Below are positions 1 to 11,799 of a stretch of 11,799 bases of DNA, piece by piece. Made by a program: the position numbers and the translations under genes. The DNA is from a virus. Every line of letters begins with the position of its first letter. Position 1 is the first letter of the stretch. Location: the UHGV virus genome UHGV-0101678, one strand, 5' to 3'. The notes beneath the pieces were generated by a model. That model was not told the DNA's origin. It worked only from the letters and a program-made list of their open reading frames with translations, and did not search any database.

Positions 1-87
1 GATCCTGATCGTCTTGCCTTATTGAATATGATTGCTATTTGCATTTAAAATCGAGACCTGGTTTTTCTACTGAAATGATTATGACTT

Positions 88-100
88 CAATGACCCTTGA
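88..100. repeat. 13-bp direct repeat, copy 1 (caatgacccttga); copy 2 at 11745-11757
   Basis: Exact 13-mer read at both positions. A single exact 13-mer pair is expected about once by chance in a window this size, so significance is weak. Left copy lies in AT-rich DNA; right copy lies at the compositional boundary. Confidence 0.3.
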
Positions 101-155
101 ATGAAGTCTATTCGGTTTTCTAAGAGACCTGTTAATTACAGGACAATATCAGGTG

Positions 156-180
156 TAGTTGGGCTTGTTCCAACCCCTAT
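156..180. repeat. 25-bp direct repeat, copy 1 (tagttgggcttgttccaacccctat); copy 2 at 3235-3259
   Basis: 24/25 identity with the copy at 3235-3259 (single t/a difference). Contains an internal 5-bp inverted repeat gttgg / ccaac. Far too long to be a chance match. Confidence 0.7.
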
Positions 181-350
181 GACTATGCAATTTAATAGTA
201 GTTTTCCAAGTATCTAAGCAGTTTCACACAGATTCTATGCAGTATCGGTATAGTCTCTTTTTACCCTAACTCATTGAAATATATAAAGAATCTGTGAAGT
301 CTCTTTTCAGGGTAAACTGTATCGTGTTAGTCGTCCCTCTCCAGACACTA

Positions 351-390
351 CATATAGTGCTATATACAGGGCTATATAACGATATATAGA
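351..390. repeat. AT-rich reiterated motif, three copies of (g)ctatata / gatatata at about one helical turn spacing
   Basis: Read directly: catatagtgCTATATAcagggCTATATAacGATATATAga, copies starting near 359, 371 and 381. Iteron-like or protein-binding array; function unknown. Confidence 0.35.
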
Positions 391-501
391 TGTTTGGTCA
401 CCATACGTTACAGTTGCAAGAGATAACAATCAGCTATGTGAAAGTTAGGAAGTGATGGTTATAGTTACCCTCCTAAAATCTTCATAGCTCCTTCATAACC
501 A

Positions 502-624
502 GTCTTAAAAGGACTTCCTTTTGAGACACTTTCAACGTAACGGTAGAATGCACCCTCAAGGAGTCTTAAAAGGTTGTTTTTGGATTATGAGACAGCTAAA
601 CTTATGAGACTAACTTTTGAGACT
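502..624. promoter_or_regulatory. res/hix-like recombinase binding-site cluster and probable autoregulated promoter region upstream of the serine recombinase gene
   Basis: 26-bp imperfect palindrome at 502-527 (gtcttaaaagga-ct-tccttttgagac, arms 11/12 complementary). Second site 563-593 pairs gtcttaaaa with ttatgagac across a 13-bp spacer. Two further direct half-sites ttatgagac (602-610) and ttttgagac (616-624) sit just before the RBS and ATG at 639. The reverse complement TGTCTCATAA resembles the Tn3 resolvase half-site TGTCTGATAA as I recall it. Confidence 0.5.
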
Positions 625-638
625 TCTAAGGGGGATGT

Positions 639-1187
639 ATGGCGGTGATTGGTTATTGCAGGGTATCAACACAAGACCAGACTGTAGACAACCAGAAACT
701 ACAGATAGAGAAGGTTCACAAGGTCGATAAATGGTTTATTGATGAGGCTGTCTCAGGAGCTACAAAGGCCACCAGCAGAGATGGTTTTAGAGACATGATG
801 AACTATGTAAGGTGTGACGATACGTTAGTTGTGGTAGCTATTGACCGTTTAGGGCGTAATACCGTTGATGTGCTCTCTAACGTTGAGTCACTACAGACTA
901 AAGGTGTGAGAGTTGTTTCTTTACGTGAAGGTTTTGACCTGTCTACACCAATCGGTAAAGCAATGCTTACTATGATGGCTGGTTTAGCTGACCTTGAAAA
1001 AGACCTTATCAGTGAGCGTAGAAAAGCTGGTATTGAACGTGCTAAAGCTGAAGGGGTTCACATGGGAAGACCCGTAAAAGCTTCTTCAGAGACTGTAAAG
1101 ACGCTTATTTCACAAGGTAAAACGAGGTTGCAGATTCAGGAAGAGCTAGGAATCTCTAGAGCAACTTATTACAGACTTGCTAAATAA
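639..1187 (+). CDS. small serine recombinase, resolvase/invertase family (Hin/Gin/TnpR-like), 182 aa
   Basis: N-terminus MAVIGYCRVSTQDQ matches the catalytic-serine motif (compare Hin MATIGYIRVSTIDQ). AIDRLGRN motif present. C-terminal GRPVKASSETVKTLISQGKTRLQIQEELGISRATYYRL is a resolvase-type HTH. RBS aaggggg lies 4-5 nt upstream. Confidence 0.9.
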   Translation: MAVIGYCRVSTQDQTVDNQKLQIEKVHKVDKWFIDEAVSGATKATSRDGFRDMMNYVRCDDTLVVVAIDRLGRNTVDVLSNVESLQTKGVRVVSLREGFDLSTPIGKAMLTMMAGLADLEKDLISERRKAGIERAKAEGVHMGRPVKASSETVKTLISQGKTRLQIQEELGISRATYYRLAK

Positions 1188-1367
1188 GTTACTGAATAGT
1201 TACATGGATGTGACTGATATTTGGCTTTTTTGCAAAGGGGGTCACATAGCTGGTGTGACGGGTACTTAGCAGCTACAGATTGATTGCAGATATTTTCGAA
1301 GATTATCGGGGAAGGGAAATGTAGAGGGGCTAGTCATTTTTTATAAAAAATTTAGAGGCTGGATATT

Positions 1368-1405
1368 ACCTGTATAGATTTTAACCAGTATAGAAGCCTG
1401 TATAA
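1368..1405. repeat. three direct copies of cc(t/a)gtata(g/a) in the recombinase-methyltransferase intergenic region
   Basis: cctgtatag (1368-1376), ccagtatag (1385-1393), cctgtataa (1397-1405). Lies directly upstream of a small RBS-preceded ORF pair. Possible operator or iteron. Confidence 0.3.
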
Positions 1406-1871
1406 CATGAGGGGTTCCTATGGTCACTATATCCCTCTTTCCCACTAAGGAAGCCTTAGCAGCACCTAGGCAACTATTGACTAAGGTCAACTTCATAAAC
1501 TCAGAGTTAAGTTACCTTGAAAGATTCTACCAAGAAACTACACAGGTATTATTTAGTCTGACTGTGAAGAGATGTTTAACGGGAGGAAGAGAACCATGAA
1601 ACCGAAGGTAGGTTCTATCTTAACAGTGACCGTAAGAAGAGAACTTGAGAGACAACTAAACAAACCTCTTAAGTAAAAGACAACACTCCAGAAAGAGTGT
1701 CTGTTTAACAGGCTTCTCAAAAGCTCTTAAGAAATCTGTTAAGTAGGGTCATGTGAACAATCTTACCATTTTGTCAAGTGTTTTGTCTTTGACCTAAATC
1801 AATAAAATGTATCGTTTGATATGCTTTTAAACAAAATAGCTAAAAAATCTTTTTAGAGGGGCGCTTCGCTT

Positions 1872-2540
1872 GTGTCACATCCAATAATCAATGTCGGTCG
1901 TTATCATGGTGGTTCTGATGACTGGCGTACACCGTATCGTTTATTTCGTAACCTACACCGTGAATTTGGTTTTTCGATGGATGGTGCTGCAACTGAGCAT
2001 GACACGCTGTTACCACGGTTCACCGATGATATTCACAATCAATCGTGGATTGGTGAACGGGTCTTCGTTAACCCGCCGTTTAGCATGGCTGAGCAGTTCC
2101 TCCTAAAAGCCCCTGAAGCTGATGTGTGTGTATGTCTGGTTCCGCACAGGTCAAAGACAACTTACTGGCTTCGGTGTGTATATACAAACCCCTTTCTGCA
2201 TGAGATTCGAACGTTACACCGAGCAGTCAAATACCTTCCACCAGCAGGGAAGAAAGGTGTTGCAGCGCGTTCACCGTTTCCAAGTTGCGTTTTGATATAC
2301 AGGAACACACCCCGCAAACCGAAAGTTGAAGTTACCCAGACAATCTATTGTGGCGACACAATGCTTTTACTTGCCGTGGTTAACAGGGGTGGTTTACGTG
2401 GAAGACCCACCATTTACCCACCTGAGACGCTCGACAGCTTCATAAAGCTATACAGGCAAGGAAAACCCATTAAGTACATTGCAGATGCTCTCAGAATGCC
2501 TCTGAGCACGTCATACAGAATTGCTCAAAGGTTGAGCTAA
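1872..2540 (+). CDS. Dam-family (phage-type) DNA N6-adenine methyltransferase fused to a C-terminal resolvase-type HTH domain, 222 aa; GTG start uncertain
   Basis: Motifs DWRTP, FSMDGAAT, VFVNPPF (NPPF catalytic motif), PHRSKTTYW, HEIRT and SPFPSCV match the phage Dam N6-adenine methyltransferase family. The C-terminal roughly 50 aa (GRPTIYPPETLDSFIKLYRQGKPIKYIADALRMPLSTSYRIAQRL) resembles the HTH of serine recombinases. Putative RBS agagggg 10 nt upstream of GTG. Confidence 0.8.
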   Translation: MSHPIINVGRYHGGSDDWRTPYRLFRNLHREFGFSMDGAATEHDTLLPRFTDDIHNQSWIGERVFVNPPFSMAEQFLLKAPEADVCVCLVPHRSKTTYWLRCVYTNPFLHEIRTLHRAVKYLPPAGKKGVAARSPFPSCVLIYRNTPRKPKVEVTQTIYCGDTMLLLAVVNRGGLRGRPTIYPPETLDSFIKLYRQGKPIKYIADALRMPLSTSYRIAQRLS

Positions 2541-2580
2541 AATTCTCATATAGAGCACTGATTATGAGAATGTTAAAGAG

Positions 2581-2613
2581 GCGATTTCCCCTGTCTGGGG
2601 TTATTCGCTTTTT
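2581..2613 (+). terminator. rho-independent terminator-like hairpin downstream of the methyltransferase gene
   Basis: gcga-ttt-cccc-tgtct-gggg-ttat-tcgc followed by ttttt. A diverged second copy of the same roughly 40-bp element is at about 2744-2783. Confidence 0.45.
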
Positions 2614-3002
2614 ACTGGAAGGGTTATTTTACAGAGGTTTTTCAAACCCCCTCAATAATAGAAACGAGCAACAAACGAAGAGCGAGAAATAAAATATTGA
2701 GACTGGTGAACGGGGTCTGTAAAGATTGTTTAAGAAGTCGGTTAAGAAGGTGGCTCTCCCTTTCTGGGGTTATCGCCTTGTATCTTAGTGAGTCCAGGAA
2801 GTTCTCTGTGAAGAGTCTTGTCAGTCCTTTATATTGGCTAATTACAACTTATTGAAAAATAAGAACTTTTAGAAATTACTGTCAGAGAGGTGAATACTTG
2901 ATAGATACAGCTTTCCGGTTCTGTCAAGCTATTTTTTAATAGATAGCACAAAATGCTAAAGATGCCCCTATACCATCACGTACAGGGGGTTTTGAAGGGA
3001 GT

Positions 3003-3179
3003 TTAACGGGGTTCTGTGTGGTCATTATCCTTAAGGTCAAGCGTCCATGTACGACCGAACAATCGGAACACAACAAGCACTCTGACGAGGACGTAGCGAA
3101 GTAGCAGGCCTGCAAGCAGTCCAACACCTCCACCAGTCCATACATCAGGTGACCCCAGTTCAGGAGGGAGATTTACCAT
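3003..3179 (-). CDS. candidate small hydrophobic protein (58 aa, one predicted transmembrane helix); speculative
   Basis: Minus-strand ORF with ATG at 3179 preceded by AGGA about 8 nt upstream. Product MVNLPPELGSPDVWTGGGVGLLAGLLLRYVLVRVLVVFRLFGRTW... has a Gly/Leu/Val-rich membrane-helix-like segment. Could be a chance ORF over a locally GC-richer patch. Confidence 0.25.
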   Translation of the reverse strand: MVNLPPELGSPDVWTGGGVGLLAGLLLRYVLVRVLVVFRLFGRTWTLDLKDNDHTEPR

Positions 3180-3234
3180 TAAATTTCCTGTGTGCAATGC
3201 AATACCATGTGACCAAATACATAGTTGATTCGGT

Positions 3235-3259
3235 TAGTTGGGCTTGTACCAACCCCTAT
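3235..3259. repeat. 25-bp direct repeat, copy 2 (tagttgggcttgtaccaacccctat)
   Basis: 24/25 identical to 156-180. Flanked by a short inverted repeat attcg (3228-3232) / cgaat (3260-3264). Upstream attcggtt also occurs at 110-117 near copy 1. Confidence 0.7.
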
Positions 3260-3346
3260 CGAATAAACCTCATAGCCACGCCTTTATATTTTCCCTCTCT
3301 CATAAAACCATTATACCACAGATGTTAATGAAATGTTAAAAAATGC

Positions 3347-3375
3347 TTGACATTAGTCTTTGAAACTGCTAAGAT
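3347..3375 (+). promoter_or_regulatory. sigma70-like promoter for the small-gene operon
   Basis: -35 ttgaca (3347-3352), 17-bp spacer, -10 taagat (3370-3375); followed by RBS gaggg and ATG at 3427. Confidence 0.4.
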
Positions 3376-3426
3376 TGTATATATGAGTTAACAGAATAAT
3401 AACATCTTATGAGGGTCAGAATATGA

Positions 3427-3981
3427 ATGAGAGACGCAGAATTTAGAGCGATGCTTCAGGCATCAAGAGAACGCAACAAGCACAACTCCTACGCTTACAC
3501 AGACACCCCCACCAGCCACGAAGTACCCAAGTTCACCAGAGCAGAACGCAAAGGCATTGACGAAGTAATTCGGGCAATTACACCGAGGAGTCGTTATATG
3601 CCAACCAGAAAGAGCACGAAGAACACTATTAAAAATTATCTGGCTAACTTTGATTCTTACGAGCAACTACCATCAAAAATTGAAGATTTAATTATCGGAT
3701 TTTGCAGAAGTGAAGGTCACCCGAAATACAACAAAAAACTATTTTATATTCTAAAGAATCTTGATGAAATTAACGCAGCCAGCGTGACAAATTATCTTCA
3801 AAGACAAGCAACCAGACTTAGCTACGAATTACCAAGCGATAAATATTGTGCATTGCTTGCTGTAATGTGTGCAAAGCTGATTGGTATTGTTGAACATCAT
3901 ATTGCCGTTGGGAATATTGAGCCAATGGAAAACGAGCAACCAGACTTTGAGTTTGACCCGTATATTTTGGAGGAATTTTAA
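3427..3981 (+). CDS. hypothetical protein, 184 aa, first gene of operon
   Basis: Long ORF with RBS (gaggg) and upstream promoter-like element. No motif recognised by eye. Confidence 0.6.
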   Translation: MRDAEFRAMLQASRERNKHNSYAYTDTPTSHEVPKFTRAERKGIDEVIRAITPRSRYMPTRKSTKNTIKNYLANFDSYEQLPSKIEDLIIGFCRSEGHPKYNKKLFYILKNLDEINAASVTNYLQRQATRLSYELPSDKYCALLAVMCAKLIGIVEHHIAVGNIEPMENEQPDFEFDPYILEEF

Positions 3982-3982
3982 A

Positions 3983-4264
3983 ATGAAAACCAGACACACA
4001 CTAACCAGAGTTACAAAGACAGCCTTTGAAGAACTTAACAAAATTAAGAAGGTTACAGGTCTTTCACATGCAGCAGTGATGAAGCTTGCAATTAACCGTG
4101 ATATTAACGAGCAGGATTTGCTTAATAGTCGCTTAGAGGCAGCAAGACACCATATCCGGATTAAGAAAGATGACCTTGATAGTCTGAAATCTTTAAATGC
4201 TTTTGGACTGGATTTAGCAAGGTTGCTAAGCATCAAAATTAACAAGCTATCTCAAGAGGTCTGA
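3983..4264 (+). CDS. ribbon-helix-helix (CopG/Arc-like) DNA-binding protein, 93 aa
   Basis: Start moved to ATG 3983 (RBS ggagg 3971-3975; the previous gene stops at 3981). N-terminal TLTRVTKTAFEELNKIKKVTGLSHAAVMKLAIN follows the beta-alpha-alpha pattern of CopG-type RHH proteins. The track start at 3881 would overlap the upstream gene. Confidence 0.55.
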   Translation: MKTRHTLTRVTKTAFEELNKIKKVTGLSHAAVMKLAINRDINEQDLLNSRLEAARHHIRIKKDDLDSLKSLNAFGLDLARLLSIKINKLSQEV

Positions 4265-4266
4265 CT

Positions 4267-4539
4267 ATGAAGCAATGGCGAGATGATATTAAACGGTTCT
4301 TTGCAACTTACTTCATGATTAATTACGAAACAGGAATGCTTGAATGGATTGATGGTGGAGAGGTTAAGACAAGAGATGACGCTTACGGTAATCCAATGAT
4401 TCGTTATGGCACTCGTGATTATTATGTGAAATATGTCATCTGGTTTTTGCATCATGAAGTTCAGGCAACTAAAAAGATTATCTTCAGGGATGGTAATAAA
4501 AGAAATTGCCACCCAAACAATTTACTACTGGAGATTTAA
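4267..4539 (+). CDS. HNH_3-like protein, 90 aa, with degenerate catalytic motif (likely inactive or domesticated HNH)
   Basis: C-terminal DYYVKYVIWFLHHEV...IIFRDGNKRNCHPNNLLLEI parallels the phage HNH_3 signature (YYxHRLxW...DHIDGNxxNNxxxNL), but HRL is replaced by KYV and DHIDG by FRDG. RBS agagg upstream; 2-nt gap from the preceding gene. Confidence 0.55.
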   Translation: MKQWRDDIKRFFATYFMINYETGMLEWIDGGEVKTRDDAYGNPMIRYGTRDYYVKYVIWFLHHEVQATKKIIFRDGNKRNCHPNNLLLEI

Positions 4540-4739
4540 TGTTATGTATTAAATTCGAATATTTGACAGATAAAATGATTAAGCATGTATCAGACCTGCT
4601 CATCAAAGAAGGTGGTTTCGGTGATGCTTGCAATCCAAAAGATATCTTCATTCATGCCACCAGCCCAAACGCAACACTAAAGACAGCAGTTACAGCGGAA
4701 TGGTTTGAACGAAATAAAGCGGAATTAGGTTATTGGTAG
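4539..4739 (+). CDS. hypothetical small protein, 66 aa (translationally coupled)
   Basis: ATG at 4539 overlaps the upstream stop (TAATG) with ggag 5 nt upstream. The track ORF start at 4506 lies inside the upstream gene. Confidence 0.45.
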   Translation: MLCIKFEYLTDKMIKHVSDLLIKEGGFGDACNPKDIFIHATSPNATLKTAVTAEWFERNKAELGYW

Positions 4740-4918
4740 TCCGAGACTTTAAGAGAAATTAGAAAAACAGCTTCTCAGACGCTCTCAATCGCATTCTAAC
4801 GCAAAAAACTACCTTATTTTAGGGTGGGTAATACCACTGTGCAGGCTACCCCTGAAAAAGACTGTTTAGCTCGTTACAGAGCGATTGAGGAGGTCTGGTA
4901 AAAAGGAGATTTTAAGAA

Positions 4919-5242
4919 ATGAATAATTACGAATTACAGATTTTCGTTGATAGCGACACCACCATGATGATTCAGGCTTTCACTGATGCAGATATTATCA
5001 TTGACTTTGATAAGTTGTTAGAGTTAATGGCTGATAATGCGGAAAGCATCTCTGACTTTATTCAGTCGGTGGAGTTTAACGAGCCTCGAATGATGCTACC
5101 AATTACAGACTCAAACATGAAAAGATTGGTTATCGAGCAAACGAACAAATACAGTATTTCCCCAGAGCAATTTTTGAAAGGTGCTGTGACAATCCTGTAC
5201 AGCGATAATATTCTGGTGACGGATTCTGTGAGGGTTCACTAA
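4919..5242 (+). CDS. hypothetical acidic protein, 107 aa
   Basis: ORF with RBS aaggag about 10 nt upstream of ATG. No recognisable motif. Confidence 0.5.
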   Translation: MNNYELQIFVDSDTTMMIQAFTDADIIIDFDKLLELMADNAESISDFIQSVEFNEPRMMLPITDSNMKRLVIEQTNKYSISPEQFLKGAVTILYSDNILVTDSVRVH

Positions 5243-5342
5243 TGATGTTAATTGTATTGTGGACACTGCTAGGGGTATTTGTTGGCTGCATTATTAACAA
5301 TGCGGTAAATAAGAATTGATGTTACCAATCTGTTAAAAGCTG

Positions 5343-5371
5343 TTGACAAATAACCTTGAGCATGACATAAT
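5343..5371 (+). promoter_or_regulatory. near-consensus sigma70 promoter driving a non-coding region
   Basis: -35 ttgaca (5343-5348), 17-bp spacer, -10 cataat (5366-5371), then tgtatatat. No convincing RBS-preceded ORF follows for about 400 bp. Confidence 0.45.
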
Positions 5372-5542
5372 TGTATATATAGGGAGAGCAATTCTCTCTT
5401 ATTTTTCTTTCAATAATCCGATGGATAGATATTCTGAGTTGGAAAGGTGCAATGCTTTTCGCTACATGGCCTTTCAGGTTGGTCTGAGAGGTCATCTCGA
5501 AAAGTCTTTGTTCATTCATTCGTTTGAATCCTTTACAGCTTT

Positions 5543-5570
5543 GCCCTAATCATGATTAGGGCTTTCTTTA
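5543..5570 (+). terminator. perfect 20-bp palindrome followed by a T-rich tract (terminator-like; alternatively a dimeric protein operator)
   Basis: gccctaatcatgattagggc (5543-5562) is exactly self-complementary, followed by tttcttta. Confidence 0.35.
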
Positions 5571-5769
5571 AGAGTTTTTAAACAGACTTTTAAAGAAAGT
5601 TTTCCTGAAACTTCGTTAACGTTATAAGCAAACCTTCAAAGCCCTTCACAGATTATGTTTAGGGCTTTTCTTAATAGAGCATCTTTAATAAATCGTTAAG
5701 TCATCTTCTAAGTGTATTGGCGTTGAAGGTGCTCTATTAAGAAATAACCACACTTAGAGGAAAATTATA

Positions 5770-6480
5770 ATGACAAACGATTTATATATTAACGGTAGAA
5801 AGGTTGATAGCTTCGGTGACTGGTCGCCACAGACTGAACATCCAGCTATCGCTATTCAGCGTAAAGAACACGATGAAAGAATTAAGCTTGAGCAATCGCT
5901 AAAGATGTCACCAAAAACAACCATCTTTGTGTATCCTGAACCTCAGGAGATGCCTGATGTTTGCAAAACTGAATCATTACTTGAGCTTGAAAAGAAATAT
6001 TACCCACTGCTAAAAGCACAGCGTATTAAGCTTGATATTGCTTACGACAATGTGAAGAACTTTGAAGAGACTGAGAAGCCAACTGATTTTGATATTGAAG
6101 TGAAAATTAGACAAAACCCATTCGTATATTACTCAGTTGAGGATAATGATGGTTTTGGTACAGCAAGAGAGAATATCTCAAAAGTTCTTCAAAACATCCC
6201 TGAAGGATTCCGTTTAATTGATGTTAGACCAGCTTCACGCGGTACAGGTTCATATATTTTACTGTCTGATAAAACAGATGAAGAGATTTGTCAGTTAGCT
6301 GAAAAGAATCTACTTGAGCGTCATAGCAAAAAGTTAAACAGATTTAAGCAAGAACTTGCTAACCAGCTTCAGGCTATGAAAGAGCTTGTGAAAGAATATG
6401 AAGATGCTAAGAAGGTTGCTATGCAGGCCGATATTGAGCAGCTTACGAAGATTTCTCAGAAATATGCAAAGGCTATTTGA
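5770..6480 (+). CDS. hypothetical protein, 236 aa, with C-terminal coiled-coil-like segment; first gene of the tail-like block
   Basis: ORF with RBS agagg about 9 nt upstream. C-terminus rich in heptad-like K/E/L/A residues. Position relative to the tape-measure gene suggests a structural or assembly role, unproven. Confidence 0.6.
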   Translation: MTNDLYINGRKVDSFGDWSPQTEHPAIAIQRKEHDERIKLEQSLKMSPKTTIFVYPEPQEMPDVCKTESLLELEKKYYPLLKAQRIKLDIAYDNVKNFEETEKPTDFDIEVKIRQNPFVYYSVEDNDGFGTARENISKVLQNIPEGFRLIDVRPASRGTGSYILLSDKTDEEICQLAEKNLLERHSKKLNRFKQELANQLQAMKELVKEYEDAKKVAMQADIEQLTKISQKYAKAI

Positions 6481-6488
6481 GGTGATTA

Positions 6489-6797
6489 ATGAATGATTTA
6501 ACAGAACGCGATGAAGCAACTAAATTTTTAATTGAGCATTTTGAAGGTAAATTACAGGGGATTCGAACGACTCTTGATGATATACAGACATACAGTGAAT
6601 ATATCATTGCCAGTTTGAAGGAAAAAACTCTTGATGAGCTAAAGTATATGGGGCGAGATGACTTAACAGTTTCCCTTATCGACCTCAAAGACAAAGTAGC
6701 TGCGCTCGATAAAGAGTATTATGAGACCTTTCTTTCACTTCGTTACGAAATTGTAAAGAACGAACGCGGTGTAGAGTGCCTTCGCTTCTTAGATTAA
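6489..6797 (+). CDS. hypothetical small protein, 102 aa
   Basis: ATG 6489 with RBS gaggtga. N-terminus MNDLTERDE is paralogous to the next ORF. Confidence 0.55.
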   Translation: MNDLTERDEATKFLIEHFEGKLQGIRTTLDDIQTYSEYIIASLKEKTLDELKYMGRDDLTVSLIDLKDKVAALDKEYYETFLSLRYEIVKNERGVECLRFLD

Positions 6798-6823
6798 AAT
6801 CGAATTAAAAAAGGTGGTGGTGA

Positions 6824-7027
6824 ATGATTGATTTAACAGAACGCTATGAACTTATTAAAGCAATTAGCGAACGATTGAAAGAACAACCCAACAAACCAAA
6901 ACGAATCAAAGCATCACCTCTAAAACAAAATGACAGAATCAGAAGAATCGCTAAGTGGTGTCTTGATAAATTACCAAGTGATTGTCAGATTGTCGGTGAA
7001 GATGGTAATTATTATCTGGTTAGGTAA
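6824..7027 (+). CDS. hypothetical small basic protein, 67 aa; N-terminal paralogue of the preceding ORF
   Basis: ATG 6824 with RBS aaggtggtgg. The first 27 nt of the coding sequence are nearly identical to 6489-6515 (MIDLTERYE versus MNDLTERDE). Confidence 0.5.
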   Translation: MIDLTERYELIKAISERLKEQPNKPKRIKASPLKQNDRIRRIAKWCLDKLPSDCQIVGEDGNYYLVR

Positions 7028-7053
7028 CAAGAATTGGTTGGGTGAAAATCTAC

Positions 7054-7093
7054 GGGAGAGATTATCGAGTGACATCGGTAACTCTCCTTTTTT
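7054..7093 (+). terminator. hairpin plus T6 tract between the small ORFs and the tape-measure gene (attenuator or terminator candidate)
   Basis: gggagag (7054-7060) pairs with ctctcc (7082-7087) around a 21-nt loop, followed by tttttt (7088-7093). Confidence 0.4.
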
Positions 7094-7123
7094 GTATATG
7101 AACACTTAAGAGGTGAAACATGA

Positions 7124-9172
7124 ATGAGCAAATTCACAGTTGATAGTTTTATCGTTGAGCTAAGCTTCAATGAAAACGTTGTTAAGGGCTTGCAAAGAGT
7201 TGAAAAGGCAGCTTTGCAGTCAGCACAAAGAATTGAACGTAATTTGAATAGAGCGTTTAAGGTCGATACCAAGCAACTTGACAGCAATCTGACAAGTTCT
7301 TTAGGGCAACTTGAAAGGAAGTTTAATAAGACCTTTGACAAGATTGAGCAGCGTCTTAAAAACACTAGAGCGTTTAAGATTAAAACGGAAATTGAGGATA
7401 CTTTAAAGCCACTTAGACAGCCAAGACAGCCACGAATTAGCGGCAACAGAGCAATCACAGCAGCTTATTCAGCGAATATGTCTAAGCTAAAAGGTCTTAA
7501 CCCAATTGTCGAGAAATACATTAAGAGTCAGTTTTATGGGCTAGCTAGTAAAGCTGGTCAGATGGATAACACCAAGTTTAATGAAGCCCTTGCTAAACTA
7601 AATTCAAGTGTAAGAGAAGCAATCACTAAAGCCAGAGGTCATACATCCACCAGCATTAATGGTGACAGAGCAGCTAGCAGCCTTGATAACCTGTCTTCGG
7701 CAGCAGTCAAAACAGCAGGTGCATTTATCTCAATGCAGGCTGTATTAGCCAGTTATCAGAAGATTATGGAAGTTGGTTTACAGCGTGCAAGTGCTGAACG
7801 TTCAATTGATTTCGTATTTGATAAAGATGCAGGTCAGGTAAAAGAGTTCACAAAGTCATTAGCTCAAACAACGGGTTTAGATATCGCTGAACTGCAATCA
7901 CAGTTTGCTGGTTTTGGTGCTTCAGCTAAAGAATCTATGGGTATTCAAGGTTCTGAAGAACTTTTTAAAAATATGATTGGCTATGCTCGTCTGATGGGGA
8001 GAAGTGAAGAAGAGATTAAGCGAGCACTGACAGCATTATCACAGATGGCTGGTAAGGGTCAGATTATGGCTGAAGAGCTTAAGGGGCAACTGGCTGAAGC
8101 TGTTCCTGGTATGGTGCAGGTGTTCGCTAAAGCAACCGGAAAGAGTGAACAGGAATTATTTGATGCCATGAAGAAGGGGGCTTTAAAATCTGCCGATACT
8201 CTTCAGAAGGTCACTCAGGAACTGAATAAACAAATCACCGCTAAAGGTGGCTGGAAAGCCATTTCAGAAAGTACTCAGGCACAACTAGGGAACCTGAAAA
8301 ACTCTTGGAATACCACGCTTGATAGTATCTTCAGAGGTTCTGAAAATGGTCTTCAAGATTTCACAAGAAGCCTAACAACGCTTTTAAACGCTCTTGGTGG
8401 AAGTGGTAAAAGTCTTGGTGAATCTCTTGGTAGCTTGATGACTGATATGTCACATGGTGTCGATTCATTGACTGATATTTCTTACAAGGTGAGAGGTTTC
8501 TTTGATGAGGTGACATTGGCTTATCGTGGTTTAACCGATGAACAAAAGAAAGTTGTTGATGCTTTAGGTTCTGGCTTGATTAATAGTTTAAAAGTCTTGG
8601 CTGGTGTTATTGCTGTGAATAAAGTTGTTGGTGTAACCAGAAGTATTTACGGGCTTATGACTGCTATCACAAGATTAGGTCAGGTCGCTGATACTACAGC
8701 GGATAACGTGAATAGAAAGAACGGGAAACCATCAAGGTTTAATCTTGGGAATATGCTATTAGCTGGTAGTGCTATCTATGCAGGTTATGAGAGATTAGCT
8801 TCTACGCCTGAACGAATGGAAGCACAAGCTAAATTACCAGAGCTGGCTAAAGAGTCTGGACTTAAGCCAGTATTTACTATGGACGATGTGAAAGGTTGGT
8901 TTAATAGTGCAGCTATGAATCTTGCTAACTTCCAGCATCCAGAATTAATCACCATGAGACAAGATGCGGCATTAACGAATACGGATATCCAAAGCCTGAG
9001 AGATGAAATTAGTGCTTTGAGCAAACGTATTCAGGAGCCTGTGAAAGTTTCACTTGGTGGTGAAGTTGCCATTAAACCAGATGAAACCAGCTTTATGACC
9101 TTTAGCAGTAATATCTACGACCAATATGCAGAAGCTACGCTATTAAGTTCATCATTCCCAGAAGATGATTAA
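7124..9172 (+). CDS. tail tape-measure-domain protein, 682 aa
   Basis: Central segment GYARLMGRSEEEIKRALTALSQMAGKGQIMAEELKGQLAEAVPGMVQVFAKATGKSEQELFDAMKKGALKSADTLQKV matches the conserved tape-measure core motif (PG-containing helix pair). Overall the protein is long, helical and low-complexity as tape measures typically are. RBS agaggtg 8 nt upstream. Confidence 0.75.
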   Translation: MSKFTVDSFIVELSFNENVVKGLQRVEKAALQSAQRIERNLNRAFKVDTKQLDSNLTSSLGQLERKFNKTFDKIEQRLKNTRAFKIKTEIEDTLKPLRQPRQPRISGNRAITAAYSANMSKLKGLNPIVEKYIKSQFYGLASKAGQMDNTKFNEALAKLNSSVREAITKARGHTSTSINGDRAASSLDNLSSAAVKTAGAFISMQAVLASYQKIMEVGLQRASAERSIDFVFDKDAGQVKEFTKSLAQTTGLDIAELQSQFAGFGASAKESMGIQGSEELFKNMIGYARLMGRSEEEIKRALTALSQMAGKGQIMAEELKGQLAEAVPGMVQVFAKATGKSEQELFDAMKKGALKSADTLQKVTQELNKQITAKGGWKAISESTQAQLGNLKNSWNTTLDSIFRGSENGLQDFTRSLTTLLNALGGSGKSLGESLGSLMTDMSHGVDSLTDISYKVRGFFDEVTLAYRGLTDEQKKVVDALGSGLINSLKVLAGVIAVNKVVGVTRSIYGLMTAITRLGQVADTTADNVNRKNGKPSRFNLGNMLLAGSAIYAGYERLASTPERMEAQAKLPELAKESGLKPVFTMDDVKGWFNSAAMNLANFQHPELITMRQDAALTNTDIQSLRDEISALSKRIQEPVKVSLGGEVAIKPDETSFMTFSSNIYDQYAEATLLSSSFPEDD

Positions 9173-9329
9173 TAATAGTCGAATGCTACGTGAATAAAGC
9201 AAAGTTAATACCCACACTAAAAATTATTTTTTACGTAGCTCACGCTTAACAGAGAAAACACTTATATATCAAAGGCTTGGTTAAAAATGATTAAAACACA
9301 CTAAGCCTTTGAAATCAAAGGAGAATTTA

Positions 9330-10103
9330 ATGATTTTTAGCAATCAAATCCGCTACAGTGGCAAAGATGGCGTTTACTTCCACTTAAGAGATAATGTAGA
9401 TGCCTTCTTAACCTTATCAGCAACTGAAAACATGGAATTTGACAGCCCTATGCAGGTGACTACACAGAACATGCAATCAGGGCAAACCGTCACAGATAAT
9501 GTGCAAAGAGCACCCAGAACAATCACTATTAGTGGTGTCGTCGTAGTTGGCTATGAAGGAAGCTTATTATTAACTCGTCAAGGCCAATTAGTAGAAAACT
9601 TCATTGACACTCTTGAAAGCTGGCGTGACCAGAAGCAGATTATTTCGGTCATCTGTAAAGATGGTATCAAGATTGATGACTCCATTATTACGAGTTTTAA
9701 AGCCTCTAAAGATGTTGGTATTTCAAATGGTCTAAGAATCCAGCTAACTTTTCAGGAAATCAACTTTAAGGCTATTGTAGGGCAAACTGATATTTCAGCA
9801 GCCACTGGCAAAACGGCTACCACAAATGATGGTGGCGCTACCAGCAAAAAGAATGCGGGTAACGTGACTACTGAACGCAATAACGCACCTATGCTGATGT
9901 GTCAGGAACTGTACAGTTACTCAGCGTCTGAGCTATCTGATGAAGCATTAAAAGCCCGTAGTAATTGCTCTAAAAATGTCACGGTGAAAGATGGTGTAAG
10001 CACCTTCACAGACTCAGCTAATTCAGGTGCTGCAAAGGTACTCAAGTCGGGTAATGCTTTACGGAAGTTTTCTGTGAATCCGAACAAGAAGGGCACTTAT
10101 TGA
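9330..10103 (+). CDS. hypothetical protein, 257 aa; candidate distal-tail-type protein by position only
   Basis: Start set at ATG 9330 (RBS aaggag 7 nt upstream) rather than the track TTG at 9309. Lies immediately downstream of the tape-measure gene. No motif recognised. Confidence 0.6.
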
Positions 10104-10108
10104 GACAT

Positions 10109-10130
10109 AAAAAGGGGCTTCATAGCCCCT
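10109..10130 (-). terminator. rho-independent terminator for the integrase gene (hairpin between convergent genes)
   Basis: aggggct-tcat-agcccct perfect 7-bp stem (10113-10130). On the minus strand it is followed by TTTT(A), and it sits 6 nt beyond the integrase stop. Confidence 0.5.
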
Positions 10131-10135
10131 GATTG

Positions 10136-11656
10136 CTACAGTTGATAAGCGTCTATTTCTAGTAGCTCTTTTTCAGCAATTTCAAAGATAGATGTTCCAT
10201 CATTTAGAGGTAGCGGGTCTGTAGGAACAATTATTTCAGTGTCGTTCTGTAGCGTTACAGTTACCGAATCCTTACCCAATGTAAGCCCTTTTAGATGCTT
10301 GGACAAAATCAACTGACACTCGACACGACCCGCTTTAGTCATAAGGTCAATATCTTTAAGCTGGGGTAGTTCCTTATCAGTGAGTGAAGCCTTACGCCTC
10401 ATGTTATCAATCATGGTCTGTAGTTCTGTGCGCTTCTGGTTCAGTTCCTTAAGCTGAATTTTTAGTTCATCAATATCATCCATCTCAAGAAGTAGGGCGG
10501 TAGCTTTCTTGATTCTGGCTGTGACAATTTCAACCTCATGCTGTAGAGATGCAATCTTCCCCTCTGCTTCTCCATCATTCCCCACGTCAATCATCCCCAG
10601 AAAATTATCAATCATCCACTTATCAAACGGTTTACGCTTCAACGGTGGAACATCACAGCGACCGTCTAAGTGGTTATTGCACCTGTAGACCCCAGCATAC
10701 TTATTCTTAGTCCCTGTAGGGTGAACACTAGCCCCACACTGACACCGGAATAATCCCTTGAAGATGTTAATCGTTAATGGGTTATCACTTGCAGGTGTGC
10801 GACCTTTACGATTTTTATCGAGGATTTCTTGAGCTTTATTGAACGTTGAAGCATCTATAGCGGCTTCGTAGTAGTTCGGTATAGCGGGGCGGTCATTGCG
10901 CTGTGATGCTGGTAGTGTACCTCTCGTTGTCTCTGACCTTAAGATAGTACGCACAGAATGAACGCTAAAACCATTAGCATCTTTACGCCGTGAGAATGAA
11001 CTAATGTTATTAGCCTGTAGGTGACGGGCGATGTTATGCAGACTTTCACCATCTAGCAGCAGCTTGAAAATCAGTCTTACAGTCTCAGCGTGTTCATTGC
11101 ACTTGAAAGTATCGGGGTCAATCCATCCGGGAACCATCTTTGTAAGACGTTGTTCACCAGCAAGGGCAAGCTTTGCACGTTGTTTCCACTTCTGGCTAAC
11201 ACGGAAAGACTTCTGCTTAGACTCTTGATGAGCTACGTAGCTTTTAACGCGCTGGATGATTGAGATTCCTAAATCATCGGATAGAGCATCCCTTGTGTAG
11301 ATTAGCCCATCCTGTAGAGTGTGAATCTCGATACCATGAGCAATAATGCGATTCATCAAGGCTTCTGTTTCAAGATGTTCAAGGCGGCCTATGCGGTCGA
11401 TAGCTTCGACTAACAGAAGTGTACCTTCTGGAAACTCCCCAGACTCAATACGGGCTAACATGTCACCAAACTGACCAGTAAGATGCTTACCTTTGTAACC
11501 ACTCAACCCTTCATCACTGAAAGACGCTACTACTTGAGCATCGCTATTCTTCTTCAACCATTGCTTGAACAGGTCATTTTGTCGTCTGGTTGAATCTGCA
11601 CCTTCAGCGCCTTGTATGGCTGATGAGAATCTCAAGTATGTTATTACACTTCTCAT
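10136..11656 (-). CDS. large serine recombinase (integrase), 506 aa
   Basis: N-terminal catalytic domain (ITYLRFSSAIQ, EAIDRIGR), recombinase domain, a Cys-rich zinc ribbon (FRCQCGASVHPTG...YRCNNHLDGRC) and a C-terminal coiled coil give the typical large-serine-integrase architecture. Confidence 0.92.
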   Translation of the reverse strand: MRSVITYLRFSSAIQGAEGADSTRRQNDLFKQWLKKNSDAQVVASFSDEGLSGYKGKHLTGQFGDMLARIESGEFPEGTLLLVEAIDRIGRLEHLETEALMNRIIAHGIEIHTLQDGLIYTRDALSDDLGISIIQRVKSYVAHQESKQKSFRVSQKWKQRAKLALAGEQRLTKMVPGWIDPDTFKCNEHAETVRLIFKLLLDGESLHNIARHLQANNISSFSRRKDANGFSVHSVRTILRSETTRGTLPASQRNDRPAIPNYYEAAIDASTFNKAQEILDKNRKGRTPASDNPLTINIFKGLFRCQCGASVHPTGTKNKYAGVYRCNNHLDGRCDVPPLKRKPFDKWMIDNFLGMIDVGNDGEAEGKIASLQHEVEIVTARIKKATALLLEMDDIDELKIQLKELNQKRTELQTMIDNMRRKASLTDKELPQLKDIDLMTKAGRVECQLILSKHLKGLTLGKDSVTVTLQNDTEIIVPTDPLPLNDGTSIFEIAEKELLEIDAYQL

Positions 11657-11744
11657 GGTGATAAACTCTCATGCAATTGATTATCATTTAAAGATGAACT
11701 TATAAACGTTATGGCTAATGCTACAATGCCGAATAGCTACAATA

Positions 11745-11757
11745 CAATGACCCTTGA
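11745..11757. repeat. 13-bp direct repeat, copy 2 (caatgacccttga), at the compositional boundary next to the integrase gene
   Basis: Exact match to 88-100. Immediately followed by GC-rich sequence (11758-11799, about 60% G+C by count), unlike the rest of the window. Confidence 0.3.
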
Positions 11758-11799
11758 TTTACCTCGCCGCTTCCCCTGGCCGACGTTACTTTCGGTCTG

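Follow-up and report, generated by a model that had tools for sequence, protein, structure and literature searches.

The stretch examined here, UHGV virus genome UHGV-0101678 (11,799 nucleotides, in what follows the window, taken at its whole length), is best explained as an integrative element of 11.6 kb, complete and still between its Escherichia coli host flanks; its own large serine recombinase (LSR) would have inserted it into an attachment site, attB, that spans the start codon of tonB. We give this reading a probability of about 85%. The features that define the insertion are:

positions 1-87, plus strand: native tonB promoter and 5' leader, the B arm of attL, now apart from the tonB coding sequence
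positions 88-100, plus strand: attL core CAATGACCCTTGA, the left copy of a direct repeat, with the crossover dinucleotide AC predicted at 93-94
positions 95-126, plus strand: P' arm of attP, assigned through the symmetry of its distal motif CTATTCGG (108-115) with CCGAATAG
positions 101-11744, no strand assigned: the integrated element, complete in the window, 11,644 bp with 40.0% G+C, bounded by the repeats
positions 10136-11656, minus strand: LSR (integrase) of 506 amino acids, assigned by Pfam, PHROG and family profile
positions 11725-11757, plus strand: P arm of attP and attR core, with CCGAATAG at 11729-11736, the core CAATGACCCTTGA at 11745-11757 and the AC predicted at 11750-11751
positions 11747-11799, plus strand: 5' end of the tonB coding sequence (MTLDLPRRFPWPTLLSV...) with its ATG at 11747, from the RefSeq annotation of matching genomes, identity to K-12 tonB and translation

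Comparison by megablast with 5,426 complete E. coli genomes placed the window between yciI and tonB. In the empty-site alignment, positions 1-100 are identical to E. coli K-12 (NC_000913.3; L002 2001-2100) up to and including CAATGACCCTTGA, and identity to K-12 resumes at 11745-11799, starting with the same 13 bp. The 13-bp direct repeat is perfect and bounds the whole element; the window holds exactly two copies, a number that was reached in 0 of 200 shuffles. With the left junction as query the homology of empty-site E. coli genomes (n > 5,000) ends at position 100, and with the right junction it begins (again n > 5,000) at 11745. The element boundaries are demonstrated. The element is found neither in K-12 nor in ∼95% of the complete E. 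coli genomes; its ends are present in 244 of the 5,426 (∼4.5%), among them the enterotoxigenic E. coli reference strain E24377A, in the chromosome every time and never joined to each other. Flanking direct repeats, related genomes with the site unoccupied and a base composition foreign to the E. coli genome, which has ∼51% G+C, characterize the segment as a genomic island. Scans of the window for tRNAs and Rfam families found no RNA gene at the junction, and an att site within a tRNA gene was rejected since both scans were empty.

The integrase carries an N-terminal resolvase-type catalytic domain (Resolvase, PF00239, residues 4-162, E=4.6e-16), followed in the C-terminal part by a recombinase domain (Recombinase, PF07508, residues 187-282, E=8.7e-16) and a zinc ribbon (Zn_ribbon_recom, PF13408, residues 298-345, E=2e-6, 28.5 bits against a cut-off of 25.3), all three exceeding the curated Pfam cut-offs. 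The protein also matches PHROG 95, 'integrase', at E=3e-78. Its translation contains the serine-recombinase motifs YLRFSS, DEGLSG and DRIGR. When 15 relatives are aligned, the residues Y, R, S, S and Q and both arginines of DRIGR do not vary, and cysteines are also conserved. A profile built from the family aligns with the C-terminal domain of the A118 integrase (E=1.2e-12, residues 32-318); the alignment extends to profile position 465 and so spans the region in which the coiled coil is expected, the motif that is inserted in the zinc-ribbon domain of LSRs and controls directionality. The same profile matches the catalytic domains of the phiC31 and TP901-1 integrases. The single protein, compared with solved structures by phmmer, gave no match at E≤0.01, and its best NCBIfam match is CcrA, far under the cut-off of that family. 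Judged by domain order, motifs and profile matches, the integrase is a genuine though distant LSR. Enzymes of this class recombine attP with attB without host factors and need a directionality factor for excision.

An attP was rebuilt by joining the right end of the element to the left, giving ...GCCGAATAGCTACAATACAATG-AC-CCTTGAATGAAGTCTATTCGGT..., and the predicted junction reads ...CAATGACCCTTGAATGAAG... In this sequence CCGAATAG on one side of the central AC is the exact reverse complement of CTATTCGG on the other, and both are spaced 13 nt from it. With arms of 22 nt, dyad symmetry reaches 14 of 22 positions at the AC, compared with 3-10 at neighbouring centres, and a score of 14 is attained by only 10 of the 11,748 centres in the window. 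The symmetry of attB is weak (8 of 22) and has the same centre, with TCAA..AC..TTGA readable in the sequence. The att sites are thus short quasi-dyads around a central dinucleotide with a shared core of 13 bp, as is characteristic of LSRs. An independent element in another enterobacterium (L012), whose integrase is 57% identical, differs between its attL core, CAATGACCaTTGA, and its attR core, CAATGACCtTTGA, which confines strand exchange to CAATGACC. The crossover dinucleotide is most likely AC, with which tonB codon 2 begins, as read from these alignments and the dyad centre. Homology to a related element in yecE, which has a different integrase, starts just past the P' arm, at about 127-183, consistent with an attP of ∼50 bp. 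Two metagenomic attR loci, L036 and L028, carry changes directly to the right of the predicted crossover, and the tonB frame is kept in both. The first reads ATGACCTTTGATGATTTACC, with a 3-nt in-frame insertion, and the second ATGACCATTGAT.

The integrase family is small and restricted to Enterobacteriaceae. A scan of genome contigs gave one relative only, in Citrobacter, and the diversity described here was collected through protein-cluster look-ups and a pattern scan of metagenomes. The integrases of the relatives are 92% (Citrobacter), 73% and 57-59% identical to that of the window; each is encoded 89-90 nt ahead of the tonB ATG, in the orientation pointing away from tonB. They adjoin locally diverged tonB alleles in several enterobacterial backgrounds, some with very different cargo. 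The metagenome scan with a P-arm pattern returned 43 loci, 42 of which are attR junctions, and among these 42 at least four spacer types are found in varying combinations with at least four tonB alleles, indicating repeated independent insertions. From these comparisons, the same site is used by diverged LSR relatives in several hosts. Many of the metagenome contigs (L016, L019, L032, L034, L046, L050-L052, L054 and L057) end ∼40-230 nt from the attR junction, the pattern that assemblies give when occupied and empty strains share a sample.

The remaining locus of the scan, L055 (metagenome contig CYGL01000620.1, 12,790 bp), carries in succession a tape-measure gene, the integrase, attP (region 3840-3970), the left end of the element and a Dam-like gene, with no chromosomal flank, and is the in silico counterpart of a PCR across the excision junction. 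Its integrase starts with GTG instead of ATG, a variant common to many metagenome copies. Several points count against an element that is mobilized by its own LSR at this site. A recombination directionality factor was not identified, and recombination was not directly observed. A contiguous attP occurs in 0 of the 5,426 complete genomes and is absent from viral contigs, in which neither the integrase nor the P arm was found. L055 is a single attP contig whose ends do not overlap, and its P' arm contains one extra T (CCCTTGTAATGAAG compared with CCCTTGAATGAAG). Because of this extra T the exact degenerate 44-nt attP pattern missed L055 and returned no match; the contig was found with the shorter P-arm pattern.

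The integrase and its att site appear to travel independently of the genes behind them. In other E. coli, as at positions 5908-17165 of NZ_AP027854.1 (L003), the same 11-kb chassis as window positions 183-10087, with an integrase that is only 34% identical, sits inside yecE, a DUF72 gene that is split in two. Conversely, the tonB-type integrase module is also found on a different, 7.8-kb chassis (L012). The presence of the tonB integrase on two chassis, and of one chassis with two integrases, argues that the integrase-attP unit is an exchangeable cassette. On the 7.8-kb chassis the genes beside attL, which encode a DUF4145 protein and a 243-residue protein (L012 16032-17455), have the orientation of the displaced tonB promoter, beginning ∼130 nt past the junction.

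The consequences of integration for tonB centre on the following features:

positions 11657-11746, no strand assigned: divergent integrase-tonB spacer of 90 nt with 32% G+C, replacing the native tonB upstream region
positions 11673-11691, no strand assigned: conserved Fur-box-like block GCAATTGATTATCATTTAA (reverse complement TTAAATGATAATCAATTGC), called from consensus match and conservation
positions 11711-11713, plus strand: upstream ATG in frame with tonB, a candidate start that would add 12 residues, MANATMPNSYNT
positions 10114-10129, no strand assigned: hairpin GGGGCT-TCAT-AGCCCC (-16 kcal/mol, z = -3.5) between the convergent Dit-like and integrase genes

As the predicted crossover lies just past the ATG and the P arm ends in ...ACAATG, integration restores the start codon and the TonB frame stays whole. 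Upstream of tonB codon 2 everything is exchanged: the native promoter and leader are left at attL, 11.6 kb away and pointing into the element, and the 90-nt spacer takes over as the upstream region of tonB. The native region contains a promoter-like TTGAAT-18-TAAAAT at 22-51. At attL the displaced tonB ATG opens a frame of four codons, MTLE-stop; the element genes between 639 and 10103 all run in the direction of the displaced promoter, whose transcripts would enter the element, and a scan of the window found no terminator-like site downstream of attL. At the other end the hairpin is likely a bidirectional terminator, judged by its fold and its place between convergent genes, and its position between the plus-strand genes and the integrase makes read-through into tonB unlikely.

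The spacer must contain the integrase promoter. It probably also supplies the expression signals of tonB, since the gene remains intact despite the displacement of its promoter. In all 34 occupied sites with full coverage the tonB open reading frame is intact, and it is annotated as intact in RefSeq. In eight elements with integrases 57-94% identical the spacer is 89-90 nt long and displays the same conserved blocks, namely the integrase start and leader, G.AA.TGATT.TCA.T at 11673-11689, and TATG with the P arm; 12 of 17 columns are invariant within 11673-11689 compared with 7 of 20 in the next stretch. The ATG at 11711, which lies in the TATG block, is invariant and followed by 12 open codons in 8 of 8 aligned elements, and gene callers often choose it, lengthening TonB to 246-255 residues in L005, L006, L008, L009 and L012. 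The case for the spacer as the source of tonB expression is weakened by the absence, in a simple scan, of a strong sigma-70 promoter directed towards tonB: the only match, GTGATA-18-TATCAT, is no better than chance and lacks conservation. Nor is a Shine-Dalgarno sequence evident before any candidate ATG, a property shared by the native leader.

The lack of a convincing sigma-70 promoter, together with the 11.6-kb displacement of the native promoter and the hairpin that opposes read-through from the plus-strand genes, would fit a different outcome, in which integration silences or strongly lowers tonB and the host gains resistance to TonB-dependent phages and colicins. This we consider unlikely. 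An intact tonB in every fully covered occupied site, in several backgrounds, is unexpected for a silent gene, spacer length and several of its blocks are kept between integrases only 57% identical, and the carriers, ∼4.5% of complete E. coli genomes, come from many sources.

One conserved part of the spacer resembles a Fur box. On the minus strand the block matches the Fur consensus at 13 of 19 positions, compared with 12 of 19 for the native tonB box at 24-42. Its central 11-mer, TGATAATCATT, is matched at 10 of 11 positions in the window (33 of 3,000 shuffles were as good) and at 11 of 11 in four other spacer types (at most 1 of 3,000 shuffles). Upstream of the unrelated yecE-type integrase, where the block is absent, the match is 8 of 11 and not significant. 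We tentatively propose, from consensus match and conservation, that the conserved TGATAATCA(A/T)T block is a Fur operator and that tonB, the integrase or both would stay iron-regulated. Three points speak against this assignment. The 19-bp Fur score is not significant, being equalled in 169 of 2,000 shuffles; the shuffle test has little power, however, as the native tonB site is also non-significant (586 of 2,000). The 11-mer was picked after its match had been seen, so that its figures are indicative only. Finally, the block contains GATAAT on the integrase strand and could equally be the −10 element of the integrase promoter.

Recognizable cargo genes, assigned through Pfam, PHROG and NCBIfam, all lie on the plus strand:

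positions 639-1187, plus strand: small serine recombinase/invertase
positions 1872-2540, plus strand: Dam-like methyltransferase with an HTH_7 tail
positions 4267-4539, plus strand: HNH endonuclease
positions 7124-9172, plus strand: tape-measure protein
positions 9309-10103, plus strand: Dit-like baseplate protein

Several further proteins are without detectable relatives. For one of 236 residues, annotated as 'transposase' by PGAP, comparison with Pfam, PHROG, NCBIfam and phages gave no match. The tape-measure and Dit-like proteins are the only recognizable virion parts. Searches of the window with Pfam, PHROGs and NCBIfam found no capsid, portal, terminase, lysis or recognizable replication genes, and the element is therefore not a complete prophage. 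PADLOC reported no defence system in it, no marker genes of phage satellites (P4-like, PICI, cfPICI or PLE) were recognized, and a link to the 'Tai' tail-interference system was rejected as unrelated.

The two virion genes have collinear counterparts in the virulent Felix O1-like phages (Felixounavirus), namely their tape-measure gene and the one that follows. The body of the tape-measure protein shares only 28% identity with its Felixounavirus counterpart; the first ∼45 codons of the gene are 73-85% identical at the DNA level to phage EC106 in the window (7115-7258) and three related elements. Over its first two-thirds, the Dit-like gene has a DNA identity of 92-95% to over 200 Felix O1-like phages (window 9345-9863, and also 10050-10101). 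Across related elements the DNA identity of this part of the Dit-like gene to these phages spans 66% to 95%, a range that suggests recent, repeated exchange with them. The tape-measure-Dit pair is suggestive, by its sequence ties, of a phage-satellite nature.

The sparse gene content could also indicate a fixed, decaying remnant, with integrase and att sites as relics and a copy unable to excise or transfer. In addition to the missing virion and replication genes, the window lacks an HTH_36 protein of 325-384 residues that L001, L012 and L055 carry. Insertion sequences are present in relatives, the integrase is truncated in ∼5 of ∼50 loci, and a joined attP is missing from every complete genome. 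Such a fate is nonetheless improbable. The integrase has its whole length and every invariant residue, the two 13-bp repeats match perfectly, insertions of this module are seen in several tonB alleles and genera, and one contig, L055, displays the joined attP.

Other observations on the cargo region concern mainly the surroundings of the small recombinase gene. An invertible segment carrying this gene (639-1187), suggested by its occurrence on the other strand in L001, was rejected, the L001 region being simply unrelated sequence, and no convincing inverted repeats flank the small recombinase region. The sequence GTTGGGCTTGT(T/A)CCAACCCC occurs twice in direct orientation, at 158-177 and 3237-3256, 3.1 kb apart and flanking the small recombinase and Dam-like genes; two copies were found in 0 of 200 shuffles. 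L003 has the second copy only, and L001 and L004 have none. These repeats could be a site for the small recombinase. Upstream of its gene, TGAGAC occurs four times at 522-623, within repeats such as AACTT(A/T)TGAGACT and AGTCTTAAAAGG that surround a promoter-like TTGAGA-17-TAGAAT, and could represent operator or iteron-like sites. The interval 2541-3426 consists of 890 nt without a sizeable plus-strand open reading frame or an Rfam match, and its G+C content peaks at 0.50 at 3001-3200; other members of the family have the HTH_36 protein here. Read by eye, it contains a minus-strand ATG at about 3176-3178, preceded by AGGA, which opens a hydrophobic frame of ∼60 codons.

A previous sequence-only reading of the right end of the window had placed a large serine integrase, with its start codon at 11656, beside an att junction near a turn from AT-rich to GC-rich sequence at about 11758. 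The start codon is as given, and the LSR domains and the empty-site alignment that it had proposed agree with the rest, the right junction falling at 11745-11757 as guessed. G+C is 59.5% at 11758-11799, 33.7% at 11657-11757 and 40.1% over the window, and a step of such size occurs at only 9 of 11,658 positions, six of them within 11744-11758. With just 42 bases on the GC-rich side, composition alone is weak evidence; the step is real because these bases are tonB coding sequence, which element DNA meets there. That reading had also taken the element to extend, probably, beyond position 1 and offered a 6-bp inverted repeat as part of an att arm or of the integrase promoter. The repeat lies where it was said to (tgataa at 11659-11664 and ttatca at 11681-11686). 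Its right arm falls in the conserved block and may belong to a promoter or operator element, but the left arm is not conserved, becoming TGGTAC or TGATAG in related elements, and at least one such repeat arises in 46% of dinucleotide-preserving shuffles of the 101-nt stretch. An element that continues past the left edge and uses this repeat as an att arm has next to no chance of being correct: the AT-rich left edge (35% G+C over 1-100) that had suggested it is host tonB promoter DNA identical to K-12, the empty-site alignments put the left junction at 88-100, and the attP arm lies at about 11725-11757, away from a repeat that is at chance level.

In mechanism the element is a standard LSR element. 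The A118/LI, phiC31, Bxb1 and TP901-1 integrases have the same domain order as the window enzyme (resolvase, recombinase, zinc ribbon), and these phage-type LSRs share its short quasi-palindromic att sites, a short stretch of identity between them and an integrase gene beside attP. It differs from them in its very distant sequence and in its target, the start codon of tonB in Enterobacteriaceae. Gene-interrupting LSR elements that act as switches include SPbeta (SprA) in spsM, skin (SpoIVCA) in sigK, phi10403S in Listeria comK and the XisF fdxN element. As in these, an LSR element lies inside a host transcription unit and excision restores the original order, but here the cut falls between codons 1 and 2, the ATG is rebuilt and only promoter and leader are exchanged. 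Tyrosine integrases serve phage phi80, and also phage 21 and e14 in icd and the integrants of tRNA genes, where the 3' end of the target is duplicated. Like the icd and tRNA integrants, the window element brings a gene segment that overlaps attB, so that the host gene stays whole; in contrast to them, its enzyme is an LSR and what it replaces is the 5' control region. Phage phi80 integrates in yciI, next to tonB (PMC5727415). It shares the kch-yciI-tonB neighbourhood with the window element, but is a complete temperate phage with no sequence relation to it.

Full-text searches of the literature found no description of a tonB start-codon att site or of the element, and the site, which is unusual, is apparently undescribed. 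What is particular to the system is the target at the first-codon boundary of tonB, the replacement of 5' control with the coding sequence kept, and the fidelity of a whole integrase clade to the site. The PLE of Vibrio cholerae is an LSR-borne satellite of the virulent myovirus ICP1 and takes its directionality factor from the phage. The window element is likewise a small LSR island without capsid genes and with sequence ties to a virulent myovirus; however, it lacks PLE marker genes, and the resemblance is a lead only. A more extended proposal is that the element is a promoter-swap module, its cargo placed under the iron-regulated tonB promoter and tonB under a surrogate, possibly Fur-responsive promoter in the attP arm, and that the island is a PLE-like satellite or tail-assembly parasite of Felix O1-like phages. 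We regard this as speculative and, taken as a whole, rather doubtful.

TonB energizes all high-affinity iron and vitamin B12 uptake, several phages and colicins need it, and its native promoter is Fur-regulated. In ∼4.5% of complete E. coli genomes tonB is detached from this promoter and must be expressed from element DNA. The iron response of these carriers, their virulence-related iron uptake and their sensitivity to phages and colicins may thus differ from the K-12 model, and the genes of the element may themselves be wired to iron starvation. The integrase is a candidate tool for single-copy integration, with attP and attB of ∼45-50 bp and a landing site in nearly every E. coli. Felix O1-like phages are used in the biocontrol of Salmonella and E. 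coli, and the link between them and the cargo would matter if the island interferes with these phages.

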